38,785 nucleotides of DNA from positions 1 through 38,785 of the forward strand of contig CAYIER010000002.1 in assembly GCA_964362395.1 (NCBI GenBank). Reading direction: 5' to 3'. This DNA comes from an uncultured archaeon (GTDB taxonomy: Archaea; Iainarchaeota; Iainarchaeia; Iainarchaeales; GW2011-AR10). The notes beneath the pieces were generated by a model. That model was not told where the DNA came from, did not search any database, and saw nothing but the letters and a program-made list of their open reading frames with translations. Both the position numbers and the translations under genes were made by a program. Each line of letters starts with the position of its first letter. Positions within the stretch are counted from its first letter, which is position 1. Below, piece after piece: positions 3,101 through 37,518 of this stretch.

Positions 3101-3134
3101 ATGCTTTTACCTCCAAAAAATTTTATCATCGGTA

Positions 3135-3210
3135 CGCCGGCAAATTCCGGCGACAAATTTGTCCCGTCTGCGACGGGACTTCCATGCACCAACAAATAAT
3201 ACTCATTGGC
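3135..3210. repeat. Mosaic hairpin element, copy B (upstream leader region of L7Ae)
   Basis: cgccgg-caaatt-ccggcg, then acaaattt, then gtcccgtc-tgc-gacgggac. A 26-nt block tttgtcccgtctgcgacgggacttcc is identical to copy E. Confidence 0.75.
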
Positions 3211-3350: not shown

Positions 3351-5021
3351 TTATTTATGTGCAAACACGCATTTTATCCTGTTTGGGGAGATTTCTTCCG
3401 CGCGCGCATAGCCGAATTTTTCAAAGTACAAAACATCGCCCTCGTTTAGGTCGCCATTGTACTGCGTTATGCCAAGCATTTTTTTGCCGTCATCCATCAG
3501 GATTTCCACGTCAACGCTCTCAATCACCCAGCGAAGAATCTTTTTCCTTTCCCCGCTGCCAGGCTCATGGGTGCCCGCAAATTTTCCGGACGCAAAAAAA
3601 CCGCTTTTTTCAAGCAAATTCACATTCAGCGCTTTTTTTAGCCGAAAAACCGAACCAATTTTTACAGAATTAATTTCACTTTTTTCAACAAAAAAACTCT
3701 GGCTCCCCGCGCTAATTCCTATCCCGTGCGCCTCCATTTTCGGCGTGAACTGCACCGACAACTCAACCGGTTCGGTCAATAGTTCCGCTGGCACCGCTTT
3801 TTCCAGCAGTTCACCGCGATTGAGGTTCGCAAGCCTTGCAAACTCTATCGACGAGTCGTTTGTTTTAATCCCCAAATCAAGCACTGCCTTCTTGAGTGCC
3901 TGCGGCACAAATCCCCTTCTGCGCAGCGCGCGGATTGTCCCAAGCCGCGGGTCATCCCAGCCCGAGTAAATTCCTTTTTCGATTCCTTCCTTTATTTTCG
4001 AGGTGCTCAAAACCATTTTGCCCAATTTAATGCGCCCGAAATGAATTGAGTGCGGGTATGCCCAGCCAAAATACTCGTACAAAAATTTTTGTTTTGTCAT
4101 GTTTTGTTCGTGTTCTTGCCCGCGGATAATCAGTGTTACACCAAGCTCGTGGTCATCAATCGCTGACGCAAAATTGTACGACGGCCAGACATGAACATCC
4201 TTAACTTTTGGGTTTGGGTGCTCGACCTTGTCCACGATTTTTGCAGCCCACCAGTCGCGCACGCTCGGGTCAGGGTGCGACAAATCGGTTTTTATCCGAA
4301 GTACGGCAGAGCCCTCTTTTAATTCGTGGATGATCATTTTGTTGAAGCGCTCCATCTGCGAGTCGGAATTTTTTTCCCTGCACGGGCACGCCTTTTTTTT
4401 ACCGATTAGCTTTCTCCACTTTTCTGGCTCGCACTCGCACACATACGCGTGGCCCATTGAAATGGTTTTTCTCATAAAATCATGGTAAATTGAAAGGCGG
4501 TCTGACGCAAAAAAAACCTCTGCCGGCGGGCATCCAAGCCAGTTCAGGTCTTCAATATAAATTTCTTTTGCGTTTGCAATCGGCTTTTTCACCTTGGGAT
4601 CGGTGTCGTCAAATCGCAGGAAAAACTTTCCCAAATATTTTTTTGCATACTCAAAGCTCAGGATTGCCGCACGCGCGTTCCCCAAATGGAACGGGCCATT
4701 TGGATTTGGCGCAAAACGCGTCACAACCATGTCCTTTTTTGCCCACTCAAAATCAGGGAGACCAATCGGTTTTTCGGGCGGCTTTAATTCATAAGAGCCC
4801 TCAAATTTTTCAAACTCTTTTTCTATCCCGCCAAAATCCATTGCATTGACTTTTTTGACTGCCAAAGAAATGACCGGCATAGCCGCCTTCAAATCCAGTG
4901 CCTTGTCAAGCGCCTTCATTTTGCCGACAACAGCGCCAACATCCGCATGCCCCTCGTGCAAATAAGCGTTCTTTATTGCGTAGCGATAAGCGTCGTTTTC
5001 CAAATCCAAGCAAAACACCAA
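3351..5021 (-). CDS. gltX: Glutamyl-tRNA synthetase (archaeal type)
   Basis: RFAPNPNGPFHLGNARAA (HIGH-type motif) in a class I Glx-RS core, with VLSTSK in the KMSKS position. Confidence 0.9.
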   Translation of the reverse strand: MVFCLDLENDAYRYAIKNAYLHEGHADVGAVVGKMKALDKALDLKAAMPVISLAVKKVNAMDFGGIEKEFEKFEGSYELKPPEKPIGLPDFEWAKKDMVVTRFAPNPNGPFHLGNARAAILSFEYAKKYLGKFFLRFDDTDPKVKKPIANAKEIYIEDLNWLGCPPAEVFFASDRLSIYHDFMRKTISMGHAYVCECEPEKWRKLIGKKKACPCREKNSDSQMERFNKMIIHELKEGSAVLRIKTDLSHPDPSVRDWWAAKIVDKVEHPNPKVKDVHVWPSYNFASAIDDHELGVTLIIRGQEHEQNMTKQKFLYEYFGWAYPHSIHFGRIKLGKMVLSTSKIKEGIEKGIYSGWDDPRLGTIRALRRRGFVPQALKKAVLDLGIKTNDSSIEFARLANLNRGELLEKAVPAELLTEPVELSVQFTPKMEAHGIGISAGSQSFFVEKSEINSVKIGSVFRLKKALNVNLLEKSGFFASGKFAGTHEPGSGERKKILRWVIESVDVEILMDDGKKMLGITQYNGDLNEGDVLYFEKFGYARAEEISPNRIKCVFAHK

Positions 5022-6500: not shown

Positions 6501-6531
6501 TCGCCAAGACCGTTTTTCAGAAAGTGGCAGA

Positions 6532-6624
6532 TATAGCAAACTGCTTATATTTTTGAACATTTTATGGCAGTTTGCTATATGCAAAGAGCAATTAAAAGTT
6601 CAATTATTTATGCTCTTTGCTATA
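6532..6624 (+). repeat. 93-nt double-hairpin repeat, copy 1
   Basis: tatagcaaactgc-N24-gcagtttgctata, then tgcaaagagc-N-gctctttgctata. 92/93 identical to 31684-31776. Confidence 0.9.
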
Positions 6625-6795
6625 GTTACACAAGACCAGGCAGTCAGACATCTTTACGAAAAAATTTTAGAAGCAATTGAAAAATCTGGACGAAAAGCAA
6701 CACTAAAAAGAATGGACACACTGCATCGTGTAAATATTCAAAGATTCAGGGAACAAATTGAATACCTAAAAAGACAAATAATGCAATCTATTTAA
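6610..6795 (+). CDS. Small hypothetical helical protein (61 aa)
   Basis: Its ATG lies inside the second hairpin of repeat copy 1. The N-terminal part of ORF-track entry 6475-6795 is repeat sequence, read in a different frame at copy 2. Confidence 0.35.
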   Translation: MLFAIVTQDQAVRHLYEKILEAIEKSGRKATLKRMDTLHRVNIQRFREQIEYLKRQIMQSI

Positions 6796-9812: not shown

Positions 9813-9868
9813 TTTTTTTATCACTTTGAATTTTTGCTTTTTTTATTGTAATCCAAATTTATATTATC

Positions 9869-9970
9869 GCCCCGTCTTCAGACGGGACACATCCGCGGTG
9901 TAACAAATTGGCAAAGAAAATATAATGATTATTCAACTGCCAATTTGTTAAAACGGACGCAAACGTTTTT
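9869..9970. repeat. Mosaic hairpin element, copy C (between tRNA-Leu and L18e)
   Basis: gccccgtc-ttca-gacgggac, then a long hairpin taacaaattggca-N24-tgccaatttgtta (13 bp perfect), then aaaacg-N8-cgtttt. Confidence 0.8.
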
Positions 9971-9984
9971 TTTATTTTTTTGAT

Positions 9985-10090
9985 TGCAGGGGGGAGGATT
10001 CGAACCCCCGAAGGCACTGAGCCACAGGATCGCTCATCTTATTTTATTGCATCTTAAGTCCTGCCCATTAAACCGCTTTGGTACCCCTGC
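9985..10090 (-). tRNA. tRNA-Leu (anticodon UAA), class II, with a ~22-nt intron at the canonical 37/38 position; no encoded CCA
   Basis: Minus strand: acceptor GCAGGGG/CCCCTGC plus A73, 3-bp D stem, anticodon stem CAGGA/TCCTG with loop CTTAAGA interrupted by an insert, long variable arm GGC-TCAGT-GCC, T arm GGGGG-TTCGAAT-CCTCC. Confidence 0.8.
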
Positions 10091-17382: not shown

Positions 17383-17807
17383 TTTTTGGCCTCCATCACA
17401 GTGGATTCAAGGTGCTTTTTTCCCCGAAAATAACCACCCTTAACCATAAGGTATGCTTTCCTGTAAGGGATTTTCATCTTCTGTTTTCCCTGCTTTAATT
17501 CCTTAAGCTTTTTCCTCTGCGCCCGAACAGCCCTCATCCATTTTTCCTTTGGATTTGTCCGCGCCTTTGCAGTTCCCTTTCTTTTACCAAACCCTCTTTT
17601 GCTTCCCTTCTTTCTTAAAAGCGCCCTTTTCTTATTCTTGCCTGCAAGCCTTTTTTCTTTGACAATCCCTTCCTTAATCAATAACCGCAGATCCTCTTTT
17701 GTCATTGCCTCAGCCACCCTTTCATTTTCAAGCGGGCTGACCCAAATCCTGCTCTTGCCTGTTTTAAGCAATTGCCCCGCCATCCCTTTTGCTTTCTGCG
17801 CCTTCAT
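17379..17807 (-). CDS. rpl19e: 50S ribosomal protein L19e
   Basis: G.SRIWVSP......A.T.ED.R.LI.EG.....R motif. ATG at 17807 lies in the relic junction; the ORF track uses GTG at 17816. Confidence 0.9.
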   Translation of the reverse strand: MKAQKAKGMAGQLLKTGKSRIWVSPLENERVAEAMTKEDLRLLIKEGIVKEKRLAGKNKKRALLRKKGSKRGFGKRKGTAKARTNPKEKWMRAVRAQRKKLKELKQGKQKMKIPYRKAYLMVKGGYFRGKKHLESTVMEAKK

Positions 17808-17819
17808 CTTTTTCACCCG
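17803..17819. repeat. Direct repeat, proximal copy: relic of the L32e stop region overlapping the L19e start
   Basis: ttcatctttttcacccg here versus ttcatcttttccacctg at 17943-17959 (15/17), 140 nt apart, flanking hairpin element D. Confidence 0.7.
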
Positions 17820-17922
17820 CCTGCAAAATCACGCCAACAAATTGGCAATTGAACAAATTCTAGAATATTCTTTCGCCAATTTGTTGCGACACTTTCCTGC
17901 CATCCCGCTTCGCTCAATGGCA
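17818..17922. repeat. Mosaic hairpin element, copy D (between L32e and L19e)
   Basis: A degenerate caaaat-loop hairpin, then the long hairpin aacaaattggc-N28-gccaatttgtt, then gcgacactttcc, then tgccat-N-aatggca. Confidence 0.8.
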
Positions 17923-17942
17923 CTTCAAAAATCAAATTTTCA

Positions 17943-17959
17943 TTCATCTTTTCCACCTG
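17943..17959. repeat. Direct repeat, distal copy: the functional 3' end of L32e (..RWKR-TGA)
   Basis: See 17803-17819. Confidence 0.7.
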
Positions 17960-24215: not shown

Positions 24216-24623
24216 TCATCCCCGCGCCGTGATTGCAGTGCTTGACTTTGTTGCGCCGATCCCTGCCTTTCCGTGCGACAGCCTCTTTCGGGTCAAAACA
24301 AATTCGCCCAAATAGTGGCCAAGCATTTTATCCATGACCGACATAACCTGGAATTCCTTCCCATTATAAACGGCAAACTTCAGCCCGACCATCTTTGGCA
24401 GAACCGGGAAATCCCTCAAATGCGTCCGAATGATTTTTGGCTCATGCCCCTGCTGCTTTTGCAAAAACGCGCTGCCGATTGCCCCCAAAAAACCCTTGCT
24501 GTAATTTCCCCTAAGCAAAGACCTCTTTATCCTTGAGCCTGCAATCACTGCAAACTGTGCCTCGCTCATTGCAACAAGCTCTTCCATTGTTTTTCCGCGA
24601 AAAGTAAATTCTTTTTTTACCAT
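24216..24623 (-). CDS. rps19: 30S ribosomal protein S19
   Basis: IRTH.RD..VLP.MVG....VYNGKEF..V.....M.GHYLGEF..TRK...HG motif. Confidence 0.95.
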   Translation of the reverse strand: MVKKEFTFRGKTMEELVAMSEAQFAVIAGSRIKRSLLRGNYSKGFLGAIGSAFLQKQQGHEPKIIRTHLRDFPVLPKMVGLKFAVYNGKEFQVMSVMDKMLGHYLGEFVLTRKRLSHGKAGIGATKSSTAITARG

Positions 24624-24633
24624 AACATCACAA

Positions 24634-24750
24634 CAACCGCAAAATCGGCACCAAATTGACAGTTGAACAATTCTGGATATTTTCTTTTGCCAATTCGGTG
24701 TGACACTTTTGTCCCGTCTGCGACGGGACTTCCGGCAAATAATTCATTGC
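24634..24750. repeat. Mosaic hairpin element, copy E (between L2 and S19)
   Basis: A truncated caaaat-loop hairpin, then the long hairpin caccaaattgaca-N26-tgccaattcggtg, then gtgacactttt, then gtcccgtc-tgc-gacgggac. About 85% identical to copy F over ~95 nt. Confidence 0.85.
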
Positions 24751-24769
24751 AATTTCCATAAAAACACAA

Positions 24770-25492
24770 TCACAATTTTTTATGCCTTCCCGTTCTCTTT
24801 GACGCAATCGCCCCGACCTTTCTTCCTGCAGGCGCATGCCTTGAAGTGGACTTTGATTTACCCGGATGGTGCTGTGAGCCGCCAAACGGATGCGAGTTCG
24901 GGTTCATTGCAACACCCCTCACAATCGGGTAATGCTTCCTTTTTGAATGGAACAAATGGTACCTTGGCCCGGCCTTAACCATGGGCTTTTCAACGCGCCC
25001 GCCGCCAGCGGCAAGCCCGATTGTTGCCCTGCAATGCGGGTGCAGTTCAGTTGTTTTGCCTGACGGCAACTTGACAAAAACATGCCCCTTGTCCTTTGAA
25101 AGAATCATTGAATACCCGCCGCCTGCACGCACAAGGCTTCCCCCGTCACCGGGGCTGTTCTCAATGTTAAAAATCGGGCAACCCTCAACACAGCTTTCAA
25201 GAGTCAAAACATTCCCCATTTCAAGCGCAGCATTTTTTCCAAACTCAACACGCTGCCCTACAACAGTACCCTCTGCCGCAATCGTGAAACCCATAGAGCC
25301 ATCATCAAACAAAATCTTTGCAAGCACGCTGCTGTTCGTCGGGTCATGCACAAACGCAACCAATTCCCCGACCCTCTTGCCAGTCAACTGTTTTTCGTCA
25401 AGCGAAAAATACCTTGCCACCTGCACATTGGACTTTCTTGCCCTAAAAATCGAGCCCTTCCCTTTCCTCTGGACCAAAATCCGCTTGCTCAT
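24770..25492 (-). CDS. rpl2: 50S ribosomal protein L2
   Basis: GN...L...P.G..I.NIE..PGDGG.L.R.GG and GVAMNP..HPFGG..HH.GK motifs. Confidence 0.95.
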   Translation of the reverse strand: MSKRILVQRKGKGSIFRARKSNVQVARYFSLDEKQLTGKRVGELVAFVHDPTNSSVLAKILFDDGSMGFTIAAEGTVVGQRVEFGKNAALEMGNVLTLESCVEGCPIFNIENSPGDGGSLVRAGGGYSMILSKDKGHVFVKLPSGKTTELHPHCRATIGLAAGGGRVEKPMVKAGPRYHLFHSKRKHYPIVRGVAMNPNSHPFGGSQHHPGKSKSTSRHAPAGRKVGAIASKRTGRHKKL

Positions 25493-25966
25493 TTACAGCA
25501 CCCCAAGCTTTGTCGCAATCTCGTCCGCACGGAACTGCCTGCTGATTTTAACAAACGCCCTCTTCCTTCCCTTTGTGTCCCGCAAAATATTCACCTTGTC
25601 AACCTTTATTTTATACAAACCCTCAACCGCATCCTTCACTTCAGATTTTGACGCCCCGCCATTCACAACAAACACCAGTTTGTTCTCAGACTCAATCATG
25701 CCCACCGACTTTTCCGTAATCAACGGGTGAAGAATGGTTTCAAATGCCTTGAGTGCAACCGTTTTGTCTGCTGGAAGCTCTCCCGTAAATTCCTTTACAA
25801 CAACACTTTTTTTTGCGCCACCTTTGGCCGCTTTTTTTTCAGCAATCTTTGAAGCGATTTTTTTCTTCGCCACAATTTTTTTTGCCACTTTCTGCACTTT
25901 GTGCGCCGCAGTTTTTTTTGCTGCAGCCTTTTTCTGTGTGGGTTTTTTTGCTTTCTGCTTAACCAT
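25493..25966 (-). CDS. rpl23: 50S ribosomal protein L23 with ~70-aa Lys/Ala-rich N-terminal extension
   Basis: The C-terminal 85 aa match L23 (ILHPLITEKS....E..NKLVFVV...A.K.E.K.AVE.LY..KV..VN). The N-terminus is low-complexity KKAAAKK. Confidence 0.9.
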   Translation of the reverse strand: MVKQKAKKPTQKKAAAKKTAAHKVQKVAKKIVAKKKIASKIAEKKAAKGGAKKSVVVKEFTGELPADKTVALKAFETILHPLITEKSVGMIESENKLVFVVNGGASKSEVKDAVEGLYKIKVDKVNILRDTKGRKRAFVKISRQFRADEIATKLGVL

Positions 25967-25973
25967 ACATTTA

Positions 25974-26005
25974 CCACTTGCCCTCTAAAGCCTTTATCGC
26001 GTCCT
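25974..26005. repeat. Direct repeat, proximal copy: relic of the L4 3' end (DAIKALEGKW-TAA) 4 nt upstream of the L23 ATG
   Basis: ccacttgccctctaaagcctttatcgcgtcct here versus 26087-26118 ccattttccctctaaagcctttatcgcgtcct (30/32), 113 nt apart. Confidence 0.85.
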
Positions 26006-26086
26006 TACCGCCTGCAAAATCAGGCGACACTTTTTCCCCATTCTTCGAATGGGGATTCTGCGCACAAATAAAAAACATCTCCATCA
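26006..26086. repeat. Mosaic hairpin element, copy H (between L4 and L23)
   Basis: cgcctg-caaaat-caggcg (26009-26026), then acacttttt, then ccccatt-cttcg-aatgggg (26036-26054). Bracketed by the 32-nt direct repeat. Confidence 0.85.
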
Positions 26087-26890
26087 CCATTTTCCCTCTA
26101 AAGCCTTTATCGCGTCCTCGCTCCACAAAGTGAGCCTTCCCGGGACAGCGCCCGGCGCAAGGAGCTTTGCATTGACGTTTTTCACATTCACAACCTCTAC
26201 ACCCTCAATGTTTCGCGCCGCCTTAAAAATCTTCGCCGAATCACTCACAACAATCAAAACACTCTTTGCCTTCTTGTACCGCCTTCCCCTCTTCTTTCCC
26301 TTTCCAGCCCTTCTCTTCCGCGCAGCCTTTGCCCTATCAACATCCAAAATCAACGAAAGCCTCTCAAGCGCCAAAACCACATTTTTTGTCCTGTCAAGCG
26401 CCTCGATTTTTTTCTCAACAATAACTGGAAAAACAAGTTTGTCCGAAATTTTGTGCCCCCTCTTTCGCACCAGTTCCGCAACCGCTGTCGCCGCAATCGC
26501 GCTTCTTGTCGCCTTCTGCTTTTCCTTGCGGTTAATCTTTTCCTTAAGGATTTTTTCAACCTTTGGCGGATGTGCCGCCGGGCCACCAACCGCCCAAGGA
26601 ACAAGCGCTACTTTTCCCGAAGAAATATATCTCCTGTTCCGCATCCTTGGCAGCCGTGCCTTTTCAATGTTGATTGTCCTGTGCATCTGCGGCTTTCGCC
26701 TTGCACCAATATAGCGCGCAGTGTAATTCCTTCCCGCGCTCTTCTTTGTTCCCTTTGGCTGCATTGCCGCGCTCTCAATTGACAACACGGCCCGCTTTAT
26801 CAGGTTTCCATCAATCGGCTCGCTGAAAACACCCGGCAGTTCAATTTCCCGGACTTTCTGCCCCTCAATGCTCAACACGCTTGCTTTCAT
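26084..26890 (-). CDS. rpl4: 50S ribosomal protein L4
   Basis: Typical archaeal L4 (...GRNYTARYIGARR..Q......GGPAAHPPK...) located between L3 and L23. Confidence 0.95.
   Translation of the reverse strand: MKASVLSIEGQKVREIELPGVFSEPIDGNLIKRAVLSIESAAMQPKGTKKSAGRNYTARYIGARRKPQMHRTINIEKARLPRMRNRRYISSGKVALVPWAVGGPAAHPPKVEKILKEKINRKEKQKATRSAIAATAVAELVRKRGHKISDKLVFPVIVEKKIEALDRTKNVVLALERLSLILDVDRAKAARKRRAGKGKKRGRRYKKAKSVLIVVSDSAKIFKAARNIEGVEVVNVKNVNAKLLAPGAVPGRLTLWSEDAIKALEGKW
26087..26118. repeat. Direct repeat, distal copy: the functional 3' end of L4 (..EDAIKALEGKW-TGA)
   Basis: See 25974-26005. Confidence 0.85.
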
Positions 26891-26907
26891 AAAAAATCAA
26901 CCGGATT

Positions 26908-26928
26908 ATTTTTTCCCGCCACCCATTG
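26908..26928. repeat. Direct repeat, proximal copy: relic of the L3 3' end (MGGGKK-TAA) 15 nt upstream of the L4 ATG
   Basis: attttttcccgccacccattg here versus 27018-27038 attttttcccgccgcccattg (20/21), 110 nt apart. Confidence 0.85.
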
Positions 26929-27017
26929 CGGCCGCGTGCAAAATCACGCGACACTTTTGTGCCATTTCGCTTTGCTCAATGGCAATGTCATTGCTCGCCA
27001 ATAATTTGTGACTGTTC
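26929..27017. repeat. Mosaic hairpin element, copy G (between L3 and L4)
   Basis: cgcgtg-caaaat-cacgcg (26933-26950), then acacttttg, then tgccatt-tcgctttgctc-aatggca (26960-26984). Bracketed by the 21-nt direct repeat. Confidence 0.85.
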
Positions 27018-28167
27018 ATTTTTTCCCGCCGCCCATTGTAGCTTCCTTTATTTCATCCGCAACGCTTTTCTTTTCAACCTTTGCCTCTTTCTTTACAACA
27101 ATCCGCTGTGCCCGGACTTCGTCTCCTGCAACCGCTTCCTTCTCCTTCCTCTTTACCCCAAGAACAGAAAGCTCCGCGACATTAAACAAACCCTTGTAAC
27201 CAACCCTGATCGGGTCCCTTAAAGCAACAGCCCTCTTTACCGGCCCAGGCGTGCTTCCGCCAAGCAAAATAAACTGGTTCTTTATCACACCATAGCCTTC
27301 AAAACCGTGCGGCACATTTATTTCCGCAGGATTATTTGAAATCCTCAAAAGCCTCTTGTTGAGTTCCGTCCTGGACTGATACCCCATCTGGCCAGGCCTT
27401 GCAACAAACCTCATAACCGTTGAAGGATTCCACGGCCCAATACTTCCAACAACCCTTCTCTTCTTTGCCTTTCGCCTGTGCATCTTTACACCAAACCTTT
27501 TGATGACACCGGTAAAGCCCTTTCCGGCATCCACTGCCTTCACGTCAACAAACTGTTTTTCCTCAAACACCTCGTTGACTGAAAGATCCTTGCCAAGCTT
27601 TTCCTTTGCAAACTTCCACTGGTCGGCAACGCTTCCGCCAACAAAAACCTCAAACACATCCGCCACCTTTTTCCCAAAACCAAGCAAACCCGGCCTAGTG
27701 CTGCACAAAAGCTTTACTTTAACGATTTTGTCAACCTGCTTTTCCAAATCAGAAACCGTAGCATAACTTTTTTCGCCCCCTTCTTTCCCGCCCTTTTTCT
27801 TATTGCTCTTTCTCTTAAAATCAGGGTGGCGCTTCCTGAAAAACTTGTCAGGCTTCTCAACAGTCGCTTCGCCCAAAACACGCAGCGCGCCCTGCTCTTT
27901 CGTATAAGCCCTAATGCCAAAAACAGACAGCGGAGGGCACTCAATAACCGTCAAAGGAATCACGACCTGTTGCCCAAAACTCGTGGCCTTCTCCTGCTTA
28001 TTAACCGCAACCGCATGAACCATCCCAGCCTTATAGCCGACAAAATTCAACGGCTTTGCTTTCTGCCTGGAAAGCACATTGTCTGACCTAAAAGTAGCCA
28101 GTTCCCTTGCAGCCCTCTTTCTTGGGTAAAATGCCAGTGAGCCAGACCTTGGCTTGTGCCGAGTCAT
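27016..28167 (-). CDS. rpl3: 50S ribosomal protein L3
   Basis: PR.GSLAFYPRKRA, F.GYKAGM.H and GKGF.GV.KR.G....RRK motifs. First gene of the L3-L4-L23-L2 cluster. Confidence 0.95.
   Translation of the reverse strand: MTRHKPRSGSLAFYPRKRAARELATFRSDNVLSRQKAKPLNFVGYKAGMVHAVAVNKQEKATSFGQQVVIPLTVIECPPLSVFGIRAYTKEQGALRVLGEATVEKPDKFFRKRHPDFKRKSNKKKGGKEGGEKSYATVSDLEKQVDKIVKVKLLCSTRPGLLGFGKKVADVFEVFVGGSVADQWKFAKEKLGKDLSVNEVFEEKQFVDVKAVDAGKGFTGVIKRFGVKMHRRKAKKRRVVGSIGPWNPSTVMRFVARPGQMGYQSRTELNKRLLRISNNPAEINVPHGFEGYGVIKNQFILLGGSTPGPVKRAVALRDPIRVGYKGLFNVAELSVLGVKRKEKEAVAGDEVRAQRIVVKKEAKVEKKSVADEIKEATMGGGKK
27018..27038. repeat. Direct repeat, distal copy: the functional 3' end of L3 (..ATMGGGKK-TGA)
   Basis: See 26908-26928. 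Confidence 0.85.
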
Positions 28168-28324
28168 TTACATACCACTTTCAAAAACCACTGAAAATGC
28201 ACACAGGCCGGCAAAACGCCAGCAAAAAAGGGGGGAACCTTTCAAAATGCTAAAAAAAGCCAAAAAACAGCTATTTTTTTTGCATTTATATCCTTAGAAG
28301 ATTTACTAAGGATACAGTGTGCTT

Positions 28325-28393
28325 CGCCGACAAAATTCGGCGGTGCTTTCCTGCCATTTCGCTTCGCTCAATGGCAATGCGCCTTGTAGGCGC
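28325..28393. repeat. Mosaic hairpin element, copy I (upstream of the L3 operon)
   Basis: cgccga-caaaat-tcggcg, then gtgctttcc, then tgccatt-tcgcttcgctc-aatggca, then gcgcct-tgt-aggcgc. Confidence 0.8.
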
Positions 28394-28604
28394 TTTTAAT
28401 ATAAATTATATGTAATTGCCCCATAAAAGGTATTTAAAGGTATTGTGGGGCAGGTTATAAATGGTTGCCCAAAAACAAATTTACGAAGGACATTAATTCG
28501 GGATAAGACAAAACCTAACTCCTGCAAAAAAGTATAAATATATGTTGGGGCTTAATATAAGTTGTTTATAATCATAAAAAATTTATTCATTAGTTGTGGT
28601 AGTT

Positions 28605-28829
28605 ATGGGTGCAGAGACTATTTTTGTGGATGTTGACTTAGCAAGAAACTTTAAAGCTTTAATTAGCCGTACCGATAATGTGACATTTAAGGATGATTCT
28701 GTTAAAAATAAGATTTTGAATACTGCGGATGATGATTTTTTGATGGTAACAAAAAAAATAGGCTCTACTTTAACACTACTTTCTGCGATAAAAGTAGACG
28801 ATGCACTTTTAAAAAGAATATTGGGCTAA
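28605..28829 (+). CDS. Hypothetical protein (74 aa) in the AT-rich island
   Basis: ATG about 25 nt downstream of an A/T-rich TATA-like stretch, so possibly leaderless. No motif recognised. Followed 9 nt later by the next ORF. Confidence 0.4.
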   Translation: MGAETIFVDVDLARNFKALISRTDNVTFKDDSVKNKILNTADDDFLMVTKKIGSTLTLLSAIKVDDALLKRILG

Positions 28830-31447: not shown

Positions 31448-31542
31448 TGTATACAAATTGCGGCACACCAAGTATTTAAATGTTACTTTTTAACGAGAAT
31501 TAGTGAATTGTATGTAAATTGTATGTAAAATCCGGCTGCTTC

Positions 31543-31635
31543 AACCGCAAAATCGGCACCAAATTGACAGTTGAATAATTATGACTAATTTCTTTTGCCA
31601 ATTTGGTGTGGCGCTTTCACCTGCTAAAGCGGGAC
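31543..31635. repeat. Mosaic hairpin element, copy F (upstream of the surface protein gene)
   Basis: aaccgcaaaatcgg, then the long hairpin caccaaattgaca-N26-tgccaatttggtg, then a degenerate terminal hairpin. Close paralog of copy E. Confidence 0.85.
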
Positions 31636-31658: not shown

Positions 31659-31683
31659 CGCCCAAAATGGCTGCGTGTGCATC

Positions 31684-31776
31684 TATAGCAAACTGCTTAT
31701 ATTTTTGAACATTTTATGGCAGTTTGCCATATGCAAAGAGCAATTAAAAGTTCAATTATTTATGCTCTTTGCTATA
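31684..31776 (+). repeat. 93-nt double-hairpin repeat, copy 2
   Basis: 92/93 identical to 6532-6624. The single difference is at 31728. Confidence 0.9.
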
Positions 31777-31816
31777 ATTTGCGGAGCCAATTTGTGGCAG
31801 CATTTTTTCAGTCATG

Positions 31817-33799: not shown

Positions 33800-33949
33800 T
33801 TTGCTTTTTCACCTCCCCTTGCACCGGAAACCCGGTGTGTCTCTTTAAATGGATTTTTAACCCACTTTCAACAAAAACTATCTGTGCAAACAATTAAAAC
33901 CATTAATCCCAATTTGGCTTCTTTGCATGGCTACCTTTGTGCAGATAGC

Positions 33950-34042
33950 TATAGCAAACTGCATTTGTTTTTGAACTATTGAGACAGTTTGCTATATGCA
34001 AAAAGCAATTAATTTGTTCAATTATCTATGCTCTTTGCTATA
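33950..34042 (+). repeat. 93-nt double-hairpin repeat, copy 3 (diverged, ~80% identical, same length)
   Basis: Shares the termini tatagcaaactg...ctctttgctata and both stems. Differences are concentrated in the loops. Confidence 0.8.
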
Positions 34043-34208
34043 TATAATTTCACACAAAAGGGCTCAAAACGCAAATTTTACAGACTGGCATTCAAATCAA
34101 TTGTTTCAAAAAAACGTTTCAACGGCGAAGGCAACCATTATTTTGAGCTATCAATCAATTCAATACCAGATATTGCCAAAATCGTAAATTTACCAAGATT
34201 ATTTTGAA

Positions 34209-35744: not shown

Positions 35745-35875
35745 GCACCATAGAAGATGGTGCACGTATGCGTTGTAAACCAACCGCGAAATCGGTTGAC
35801 GCTTTAGTGTCCTCTTCGAGGACAGTCCCGCTGCAAGCGGGACAAATTCGTCGCCAGAATTTGCTGGCGGGCGCA
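35745..35875. repeat. Mosaic hairpin element, copy J (between archease and vapB); collinear with copy A
   Basis: Hairpins: gcaccat-agaag-atggtgc, caaccg-cgaaat-cggttg, gtcctc-ttc-gaggac, gtcccgc-tgcaa-gcgggac, aaattc-gtcgcca-gaattt (alternative fold cgccag-aatttg-ctggcg). Confidence 0.8.
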
Positions 35876-37342: not shown

Positions 37343-37366
37343 TTCCCAAAACCCTTGCGTGAGTTT

Positions 37367-37449
37367 TAACAAATTGGCAAAAGAAATCCCATAAATTATT
37401 CACTTGCCAATTTGTTACGCCGCATATATGCCCCGCCTGAAGGCGAGAC
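37367..37449. repeat. Mosaic hairpin element, copy K (between EF-1alpha and S10)
   Basis: Long hairpin taacaaattggcaa-N23-ttgccaatttgtta (14 bp perfect), then gccccgcc-tgaa-ggcgagac. Confidence 0.8.
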
Positions 37450-37518
37450 AATAATACCCCAATATATTATAATGGAATAAAAAAAATTTTTGGGAAAAAA
37501 CCCAAAATAGTAACAGCA

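Follow-up and report, generated by a model that had tools for sequence, protein, structure and literature searches.

Hairpin cassettes between duplicated gene ends in a ribosomal-protein operon of an uncultured Iainarchaeota archaeon

Introduction

Mycobacterial interspersed repetitive units (MIRUs) have been described as units of 40-100 bp, often present in tandem arrays, which bring their own stop/start codon overlap (Supply et al. 1997, as summarised in PMC12548453). According to the same summary, the internal open reading frame (ORF) of a MIRU is coupled to the flanking genes via overlapping stop and start codons, so that the insertion has little effect on expression (PMC12548453). Palindromes resembling repetitive extragenic palindromic (REP) sequences have been reported in archaea (PMC12306157). 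MIRUs, together with REPs and bacterial interspersed mosaic elements (BIMEs), are the closest analogues known for the elements described here, a family of small hairpin cassettes found between duplicated gene ends in the ribosomal-protein operon of contig CAYIER010000002.1 (assembly GCA_964362395.1; positions 1 to 38,785, the whole of which is referred to below as the window).

The host was placed by the relatives found for it among the Iainarchaeota (Diapherotrites, DPANN); it is a groundwater archaeon with a reduced genome. The window carries a minus-strand archaeal ribosomal-protein operon running from L3 (28167-27016) and L4 (26890-26084) through L23, L2, S19, L22 and S3 to SecY, the gene identities being backed by Pfam matches on identical genes from other assemblies. 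L3 (rpl3; 383 aa, ending ...EATMGGGKK-TGA, with its stop at 27018-27016) was identified from its ORF and from PF00297 on the identical gene in loci L088-L094, and L4 (rpl4; 268 aa, ATG at 26890, ending ...DAIKALEGKW-TGA) from PF00573. Unless stated otherwise, features below are on the minus strand.

A duplicated gene end at the L3/L4 junction

On the plus strand of the L3/L4 junction, positions 26908-26928 (ATTTTTTCCCGCCACCCATTG) and 27018-27038 (ATTTTTTCCCGCCGCCCATTG) form a direct repeat that agrees at 20 of 21 positions, has a spacing of 110 nt and is bounded by mismatches on both sides. A first-pass annotation of this DNA had pointed out the repeat, which was recovered both from its coordinates and in a census of direct repeats. 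Read in the direction of the genes, the copy at 27018-27038 (CAATGGGCGGCGGGAAAAAAT) is the real end of L3, its last T being the first base of the TGA stop codon. The copy at 26908-26928 (CAATGGGTGGCGGGAAAAAAT) is followed by AA and is a relic of this end, reading MGGGKK-TAA with the relic stop at 26908-26906, 15 nt before the ATG of L4. The annotation had also taken the distal copy to be the true end of the gene, and the L3 C-terminus does align with those of two relatives (...EDEIREAAGGKK in L096 and ...EDEIKAATAAKK in L031).

Between the two copies lies an insert of 89 nt (E1; 26929-27017), which consists of a unique 5' part (27017-26985) rich in single nucleotide polymorphisms (SNPs), a hairpin A (26984-26960), a linker (CAAAAGTGTC) and a hairpin B (26952-26931) whose loop in this copy is ATTTTG. 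The 'GA' of the L3 TGA stop comes from this insert. Its earlier assignment to a family of hairpin repeats is borne out by the recurrence of hairpins A and B at 28320-28393, 26006-26036, 17813-17922 and other positions. What had not been recognised is that E1 contains a 37-codon ORF (26906-27019; MNSHKLLASNDIAIEQSEMAQKCRVILHAAAMGGGKK followed by the stop), the ATG of which overlaps the L3 stop codon as ATGA and which ends at the relic TAA; it is called as a gene in all assemblies. ORFs of this kind, which span the insert from the upstream stop towards the downstream start, are termed relay ORFs here and numbered with their inserts.

The 21-mer consists of L3 coding sequence only, the Shine-Dalgarno sequence and ATG of L4 lying outside it. 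The duplication was therefore not needed to rescue the initiation region of L4, and selection for preservation of the junction cannot alone account for its length. This speaks for a long duplication that belongs to the insertion event itself and is not purely a product of selection. The earlier interpretation of the junction is supported in each testable step, and the position of the L4 initiation region outside the 21-mer refines it.

The same layout (L3, 37-aa ORF, L4, 37-aa ORF, L23) is found in at least six independent assemblies. Both E1 and the insert of the following junction (E2, see below) are carried by three ENA assemblies from Hainich groundwater well H51 and by the Logan assemblies SRR32696698, SRR32696696 and ERR3858114; these are 99.2-99.9% identical to the window and are told apart by SNPs, and inserts E3 and E4 are carried by further assemblies. 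The lone mismatch within the 21-mer (position 26921, T/C) is polymorphic, and the repeat is a perfect 21/21 in four assemblies. Misassembly, which had been raised earlier as a possible source of the repeat, is thus excluded. Chance was assessed with 200 dinucleotide-preserving shuffles of the whole window, none of which contained a repeat of at least 20 nt and at least 90% identity within 40-300 nt, against two observed (the E1 21-mer and a 33-mer at L4/L23). These two are also the only direct repeats above 90% identity in the short-range census of the window, and both lie at insert-bearing ribosomal junctions.

Two candidates for the L3/L4 arrangement were rejected. Programmed frameshifting or bypassing finds no place in an L3 that is full length without recoding by comparison with its relatives, and for an archaeal intron of the bulge-helix-bulge (BHB) type, minimum free energy and centroid folds of both this and the L4/L23 junction showed internal hairpins only, with no BHB formed by the boundaries, which are direct repeats.

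Further inserts and their flanking duplications

At the L4/L23 junction, a 33-mer is repeated with 31 of 33 positions identical and a spacing of 113 nt (25973-26005 and 26086-26118) around an 80-nt hairpin insert, E2 (26006-26085). The copy at 26086-26118 is the real end of L4 and its last T is again the first base of the TGA stop, the 'GA' of which likewise comes from the insert. E2 comprises a unique 5' part, a hairpin X (26055-26035), a linker (AAAAGTGTC) and a hairpin B (26029-26006). The relic copy at 25973-26005, both differences of which fall on third codon positions, is followed by AA and so ends in a relic TAA (versus TGA at the real stop) 4 nt before the ATG of L23 (25966). Relay ORF 2 (25971-26084; 37 aa, MEMFFICAQNPHSKNGEKVSPDFAGGKDAIKALEGKW and the stop) overlaps the stop of L4 as TGATG and ends at the relic TAA.

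The repeat at the L32e/L19e junction (14 of 15 positions identical) holds the whole ancestral junction, in which the end of L32e (...WKR-TGA) overlaps the start of L19e as ATGA. Copy 1 (17943-17957; GGTGGAAAAGATGAA) forms the real end of L32e and has kept the ancestral ATGA overlap, and copy 2 (17803-17817; GGTGAAAAAGATGAA) supplies the Shine-Dalgarno sequence and ATG (17807-17805) of L19e. Insert E3, of 125 nt (17818-17942), is made up of a 5' TGAAAATTTGATTTTTGAAG segment, a hairpin A and a B hairpin, the latter split by a palindromic unit (AACAAATTGGC...GCCAATTTGTT) nested in it. Relay ORF 3 (17813-17947; 44 aa from its ATG, MNENLIF...WRDFAGG) starts at the duplicated L19e-type ATG, where it overlaps the L32e stop (ATGA), and terminates 5 nt before the ATG of L19e at a TGA created by a TGG to TGA change in copy 2.

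The L2/S19 spacer (24624-24769) holds insert E4, with a hairpin D, a nested palindromic unit and a degenerate B. It is flanked by a degraded repeat, TTGTG(T/A)T(T/G)TTATGG (24756-24769 and 24620-24633, 11 of 14 positions). Relay ORF 4 (24628-24759; 43 aa) starts 10 nt after the L2 stop and ends at a relic TGA of the L2 type. In the spacer between L24e and the nucleoside diphosphate kinase gene (NDK; 2118-2288), a cluster of about seven hairpins (E5) is found; relay ORF 5 (2124-2282; 52 aa) begins there with a GTG 6 nt after the L24e stop and ends 6 nt before the ATG of NDK. The operon has 20 further junctions, each of them tight (-4 to +13 nt).

When the flanks of each insert were tested, p values of about 0.001 (E1), below 0.001 (E2) and about 0.002 (E3) were obtained. 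Every one of the duplications belongs to its own site, borders the insert at either end and is 14-33 nt long. The search for further insertions with duplications thus yielded, within the window, those of E2 (33 nt), E3 (15 nt) and, in degraded form, E4 (about 14 nt), which makes the 21 nt of E1, judged by the first-pass annotation to be too long for a classical target-site duplication, one of a series of variable length.

Anatomy of the hairpin cassettes

The inserts have no terminal inverted repeats: E1 begins GAACAGTC... and ends ...CACGCGGCCG, E2 begins GATGGAGA... and ends ...CAGGCGGTA, and neither pair is complementary. The insert is hence not a classical miniature inverted-repeat transposable element (MITE). 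E1-E4, and an insert in relative L102 described below, have their 3' end at the base of hairpin B, immediately next to the relic copy. The loop of this hairpin, (G)ATTTTG(C) (GATTTTGC), is conserved and its stem covaries, with 87% of its cells paired against 68% in shuffles (a value reached by none of 500) and compensatory double-sided changes in six of eight pairs. The A-rich linker AAAG(T/C)GTC (AAAGYGTC) separates B from a variable hairpin further upstream, which may be A, D or X. At their 5' end, the inserts have 20-33 nt that are AT-rich, contain TGA, are unique in the sequence examined and hold most of the strain SNPs; the hairpin stems are free of SNPs. The copies combine hairpins A, B, D and X in differing ways, and the folds of both junctions have z-scores of about -2.1.

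A covariance model of hairpin B detected 12 copies in the window, ten in sense orientation and all outside annotated protein-coding genes, though short relay ORFs overlap some of them. The model also found copies in L102 and L103; its matches to L096 and L036 were weak, and more distant relatives gave none. Rfam searches, at gathering thresholds on the whole window and at E<=5 on 24550-28650, returned tRNA only and no family for the hairpins. Members of the family beyond the intra-operon junctions include hairpins A and B in the 5' leader of the L3 operon (28320-28393) and a cluster directly 3' of the archease gene (35776-35874; B, two D-like hairpins and an inverted B), both without flanking duplication, and hairpins D and B in the leader of the L7Ae operon (3130-3180).

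Some copies hold a nested palindromic unit of about 55 nt (AACAAATTGGCA...TGCCAATTTGTT). The same unit, with termini (T)AACAAATTGGCA and TGCCAATTTGTTA, is free-standing at 9862-9970 (L18e leader) and 37348-37456 (S10 leader) and is nested in the B hairpins of E3, E4 and 31542-31617; it resembles a second small element with the B-hairpin family as its target. Read in antisense (plus strand), 26006-26029 and 26931-26952 present B followed by ACACTTTT(T), which scores as intrinsic-terminator-like. An antisense terminator of this kind may block antisense transcription, which could account for the single orientation found inside the operon.

E3 of the window is 90% identical to its counterpart in L103, compared with 77-81% at synonymous third positions of the four flanking genes, so that E3 is either constrained or homogenised between copies.

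A separate family of about 95 nt occurs at 6527-6627, 31679-31779 and 33945-34045. It consists of two adjacent palindromes, CTATAGCAAACTGC...GCAGTTTGCTATA and TGCAAAGAGCA...TGCTCTTTGCTATA, has two copies that are 96% identical and adjoins small plus-strand ORFs; it may be an operator/promoter cassette or another mobile element.

Relay ORFs

A relay ORF is present in all five intra-operon inserts, beginning on or beside the upstream stop and ending 4-15 nt before the downstream start. In E1-E4 it reads the relic in the frame of the upstream gene. Its stop is the relic stop itself in E1, E2 and E4, and in E3 a TGA made inside the relic by a single mismatch. The joint probability of five relay ORFs in five inserts was estimated at about 0.003 from dinucleotide shuffles.

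A conserved micro-protein was considered and rejected: hairpin B is read in different frames among the copies (RVILHAA in E1; SPDFAGG and RDFAGG in E2 and E3) and the peptide is therefore not conserved. By analogy with what has been proposed for MIRUs, the role of the relay ORFs is likely to be the delivery of ribosomes to the downstream gene. Termination-reinitiation in archaea has been described to require overlaps or very short spacers (PMC6728339, PMC10666635), a need with which delivery by a relay would fit.

Corresponding junctions in relatives

Among 11 relatives (L4 identity 56-71%), the L3/L4 and L4/L23 junctions are single-copy and their genes overlap or lie at most 22 nt apart. The nearest outgroup, L096, ends its L3 gene with GCTGGCGGGAAAAAGTGA (...AAGGKK and the stop; motif GGCGGGAAAAAGTGA) 9 nt before the L4 ATG and has one copy of the motif. 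The relic of the window with its 15 nt and ATG resembles this single-copy junction, in line with the earlier suggestion that the relic is the ancestral junction, and by this comparison the L096 junction serves as an effective empty site. The call for empty sites was accordingly answered in part, by tight single-copy junctions in 11 relatives and by none at the level of strains or sister species. Scans of genome and metagenome contigs for closer relatives reached at most 65% L4 identity and protein searches 71% (L4) and 68% (L3); a sister clade was reached through L32e only (80% identity).

In this sister clade, L103, L104 and L105 carry an orthologue of E3 between a perfect pair of GGTGGAAAAGATGA, the second of which is followed by the remnant of another insert. 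L102 has a different two-hairpin insert, between GGTGGAAGAAATGA and GGTGGAAGAAGTAA (twice GGTGGAAGAA(A/G)T(G/A)A), and a relay ORF of 34 aa (MSAG...AGGWKK) that starts with an ATGA overlap and ends in the relic. The duplications of the sister lineages are 14 nt long. Both flanks of the L102 insert carry the same lineage-specific substitutions. At 1040-1075 of L103, behind the relic L32e end, stands GTGCAGGCAGGTGTATTGA, which forms a mini-ORF of 8 codons (MSAGRCIE) with ATGA coupling on either side; the first bases of this sequence are the start of the L102 insert (L102, 3102-3125). The shared flank substitutions in L102 and the occurrence of the start of its insert behind the L103 relic suggest serial insertion, partial deletion or loss, or conversion at the L32e/L19e junction. 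In about 90 other loci, the search for similar signatures returned unrelated tandem or hairpin repeats only.

Two further observations concern the L3 gene and its leader in relatives. The L3 gene of L031 (5220-5289) contains an in-frame 42-nt tandem duplication (...FSPTFSQKV...FSPTFSQKV...) with a perfect 28-nt repeat that includes the hairpin CAACCTTTTCCCAAAAGGTTG. In the L3 operon leader, a promoter-like box (CACAATACCTTTAAATACCTTTT) and a block of about 60 nt with hairpin TATCCTTAGTAAATCTTCTAAGGATA (~28262-28322 and ~28440-28462) are almost identical in L096 (~3915-4090), the proteins of which are only ~67% identical; the hairpin modules between them differ. This leader may be a conserved leader RNA or an autoregulatory site.

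Proposed mechanism and alternative explanations

The probable explanation is that small, non-autonomous hairpin cassettes have spread here, that their insertion into coupled junctions duplicates 14-33 bp and that the outcome passes through a relay-ORF filter. A lineage-specific cassette family would spread in this species group via the leaders, 3' ends and intercistronic spacers of highly expressed operons. On landing in a tightly coupled ribosomal junction (E1, E2, E3, L102, L103), the insertion itself would duplicate 14-33 bp, the upstream copy keeping the C-terminus of the upstream gene and the downstream copy the ancestral sequence ahead of the downstream start. This duplication would arise in one step. 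Either a long staggered break, variable in extent, would be filled in, or a copy-in template switch would return to the target 14-33 nt behind the point where it had left; a classical DDE transposase is presumably not involved. Among the survivors, selection would further retain those in which the relay frame is open, so that ribosomes translate through the hairpins, terminate at or within the relic and are released at or near the same distance from the downstream start as in the ancestor, which would preserve termination-reinitiation coupling in the operon.

No insertion mechanism known from prokaryotes matches long, variable and site-specific duplications of this type. The candidate routes comprise template switching, a staggered break and target-primed copying of a hairpin-ended RNA; the fixed 3' end and the variable, unique 5' end of the inserts fit a template switch or target-primed RNA copying better than a transposase. 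The stronger proposal that the mechanism is one undescribed in archaea, whether SINE-like (short interspersed nuclear element) retroposition or RNA-templated repair that uses mRNA fragments with B-protected 3' ends, or a new integrase or nuclease making cuts staggered by 14-33 bp at stop/start junctions, with the relay ORFs as a selected device, is decidedly doubtful at present. If true, relay ORFs would let such elements colonise essential, translationally coupled operons.

Several points weigh against the preferred explanation. No transposase, integrase, reverse transcriptase, Cas1, HUH enzyme or REP-associated tyrosine transposase (RAYT) was detected with Pfam in the 38.8-kb window. The E4 duplication is not significant by itself (p = 0.14), E5 has no detectable duplication, and at seven non-operon clusters (leaders and 3' regions) no flanking duplication rose above chance; with none outside coupled junctions, the duplication could be a rare by-product kept by selection and not a rule of the mechanism. 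The repeats measure 21, 33 and 15 nt, each divisible by three, which a one-step staggered cut does not predict. For L3/L4, neither strains nor sister species yielded a true empty site, the nearest comparator having 67-68% protein identity. The spacers are poor in stop codons on both strands, which makes part of the relay-ORF signal compositional, and in L103 a TGA within a B loop interrupts the long relay ORF, which shows that a long relay ORF is not indispensable; for these two reasons, selection on the relay frame is suggestive and not conclusive.

An alternative in two steps, in which slippage makes an in-frame tandem duplication of a gene end and a cassette later inserts exactly at the joint without target duplication, would accommodate the multiples of three, and the tandem duplication would be viable as it keeps both frame and stop. 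The tandem duplication in L3 of L031 indicates that such events happen in these operons, and there are family members elsewhere without flanking duplication. The exact joint would, however, have to be hit in at least four to five independent cases (E1, E2, E3 and the L102/L103 inserts), no insert-free tandem junction duplication was seen in about 100 loci scanned, and the frame argument fails for E3 because its stop lies inside the repeat. This sequence of events is regarded as unlikely.

The copying of B-protected mRNA decay fragments into a nicked target, as in target-primed reverse transcription or RNA-templated repair, would explain why each of the five inserts (E1-E4 and L102) stops at the base of B against the relic, why the 5' parts are unique, AT-rich and stop-containing like the start of a 3' untranslated region, and why the duplications vary from 14 to 33 nt. 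The cassettes also lie in highly transcribed regions and mostly in sense orientation (10 of 12 B modules). Nevertheless, this route is very unlikely: there is no reverse transcriptase within the 38.8 kb, the inserts have no A-tail and a template switch at the DNA level gives the same pattern. Nor is retroposition of this target-primed type known from archaea.

Equally improbable is that the hairpin pairs are maintained by selection as RNA modules serving the host, for example as 3'-end stabilisers of the REP type, as sites of processing or as antisense terminators, the relics persisting only as initiation regions and any mobility being incidental. It is consistent with this possibility that E3 is more conserved than synonymous sites, that the stems covary, the loop is conserved and SNPs avoid the stems, that the L3 leader of L096 keeps hairpin modules, although of a different type, at the same place, and that B with its ACACTTTT tract is terminator-like in antisense. 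The origin of the site-specific duplications would be left without explanation, however; the E1 relic does not form part of the L4 Shine-Dalgarno sequence or ATG, no Rfam family was matched even at E<=5, and the family is limited to the closest relatives and so is not an ancient regulatory feature.

An assembly artefact or a chance repeat can be given practically no weight, as at least six assemblies from different samples and two pipelines, distinguished by SNPs, all agree, nothing comparable arose in 200 shuffles, and a repeat of 21 nt is shorter than the k-mers usually employed in assembly.

Other features of the window

Pfam analysis of 20 non-ribosomal ORFs of the window yielded, besides housekeeping genes, only a PIN domain, RtcB, archease and a fragment of an intein; the last is a 268-aa ORF at the window edge (190-996), whose sole match is an intein splicing domain. 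Look-ups intended to reach beyond the window gave no match for EF1a and, for NDK, only contigs of 1.3-2.8 kb. A tRNA containing an intron was found at 9985-10090 (106 nt, compared with a model of 71 positions), with 45 bits in Rfam; it was missed by ARAGORN and lies directly upstream of a hairpin cluster and the L18e gene.

Comparison with known systems

With four to five junctions in one genome, plus the sister lineages, the operon amounts to an experiment, run repeatedly in nature, on the extent to which a coupled stop/start junction must stay intact in an archaeal ribosomal operon, and it provides suggestive sequence-level evidence for selection on termination-reinitiation coupling in DPANN archaea. 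Selfish or semi-domesticated hairpin repeats can apparently invade even the most conserved operon of a reduced genome. Their insertion signature (long, variable, site-specific duplications, no inverted repeats and a fixed 3' hairpin end) lies outside known prokaryotic transposition, and if the mechanism were RNA-mediated or relied on a new nuclease, a new class of archaeal mobile element would be represented.

Several described systems share part of this signature. The cassettes share with the SINEs and long interspersed nuclear elements (LINEs) of eukaryotes target duplications of variable length, a variable 5' end and a 3' end that is fixed by a stem-loop. This likeness is one of pattern only; no reverse transcriptase is found in the window and the inserts have neither an A-tail nor a pol III promoter. 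MITEs are likewise small, non-autonomous, multicopy and flanked by direct repeats of the target (PMC10969869), but here terminal inverted repeats are missing, the duplications vary from 14 to 33 nt where those of MITEs are fixed at 2-10 bp, the inserts have a fixed 3' and a heterogeneous 5' end, and no transposase occurs within the 38.8-kb window. The palindrome-associated transposable elements (PATEs) derived from IS200/IS605 insert 3' of a conserved tetra- or pentanucleotide without duplication, whereas the targets here differ and are duplicated. Unlike those of an archaeal BHB intron, the junction boundaries form no BHB motif. Rickettsia palindromic elements (RPEs) are also palindromic and compatible with translation in or near essential genes (PMC10969869); they differ in lying in frame inside ORFs and joining the host protein, while here the host protein ends before the insert and a separate ORF reads through it.

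The likeness to REPs and BIMEs extends to modular, imperfectly palindromic, GC-rich hairpins with covarying stems in what appear to be extragenic or intercistronic positions, often just after stop codons, and a role in protection of the mRNA 3' end is plausible here as well. REPs are not known for long target duplications, which are present here at three to four sites; moreover, the motif and loop (GATTTTGC) are unrelated to known REPs and no RAYT is encoded in the window. With MIRUs, the cassettes have in common that they are small intercistronic repeats of operons with a coupled ORF, the overlaps being ATGA (L3), TGATG (L4) and ATGA (L32e). They are distinguished from MIRUs by an archaeal host, by hairpin pairs in place of tandem arrays and by the source of the coupling signals, which come from the duplicated target junction of 14-33 nt and not from the element.

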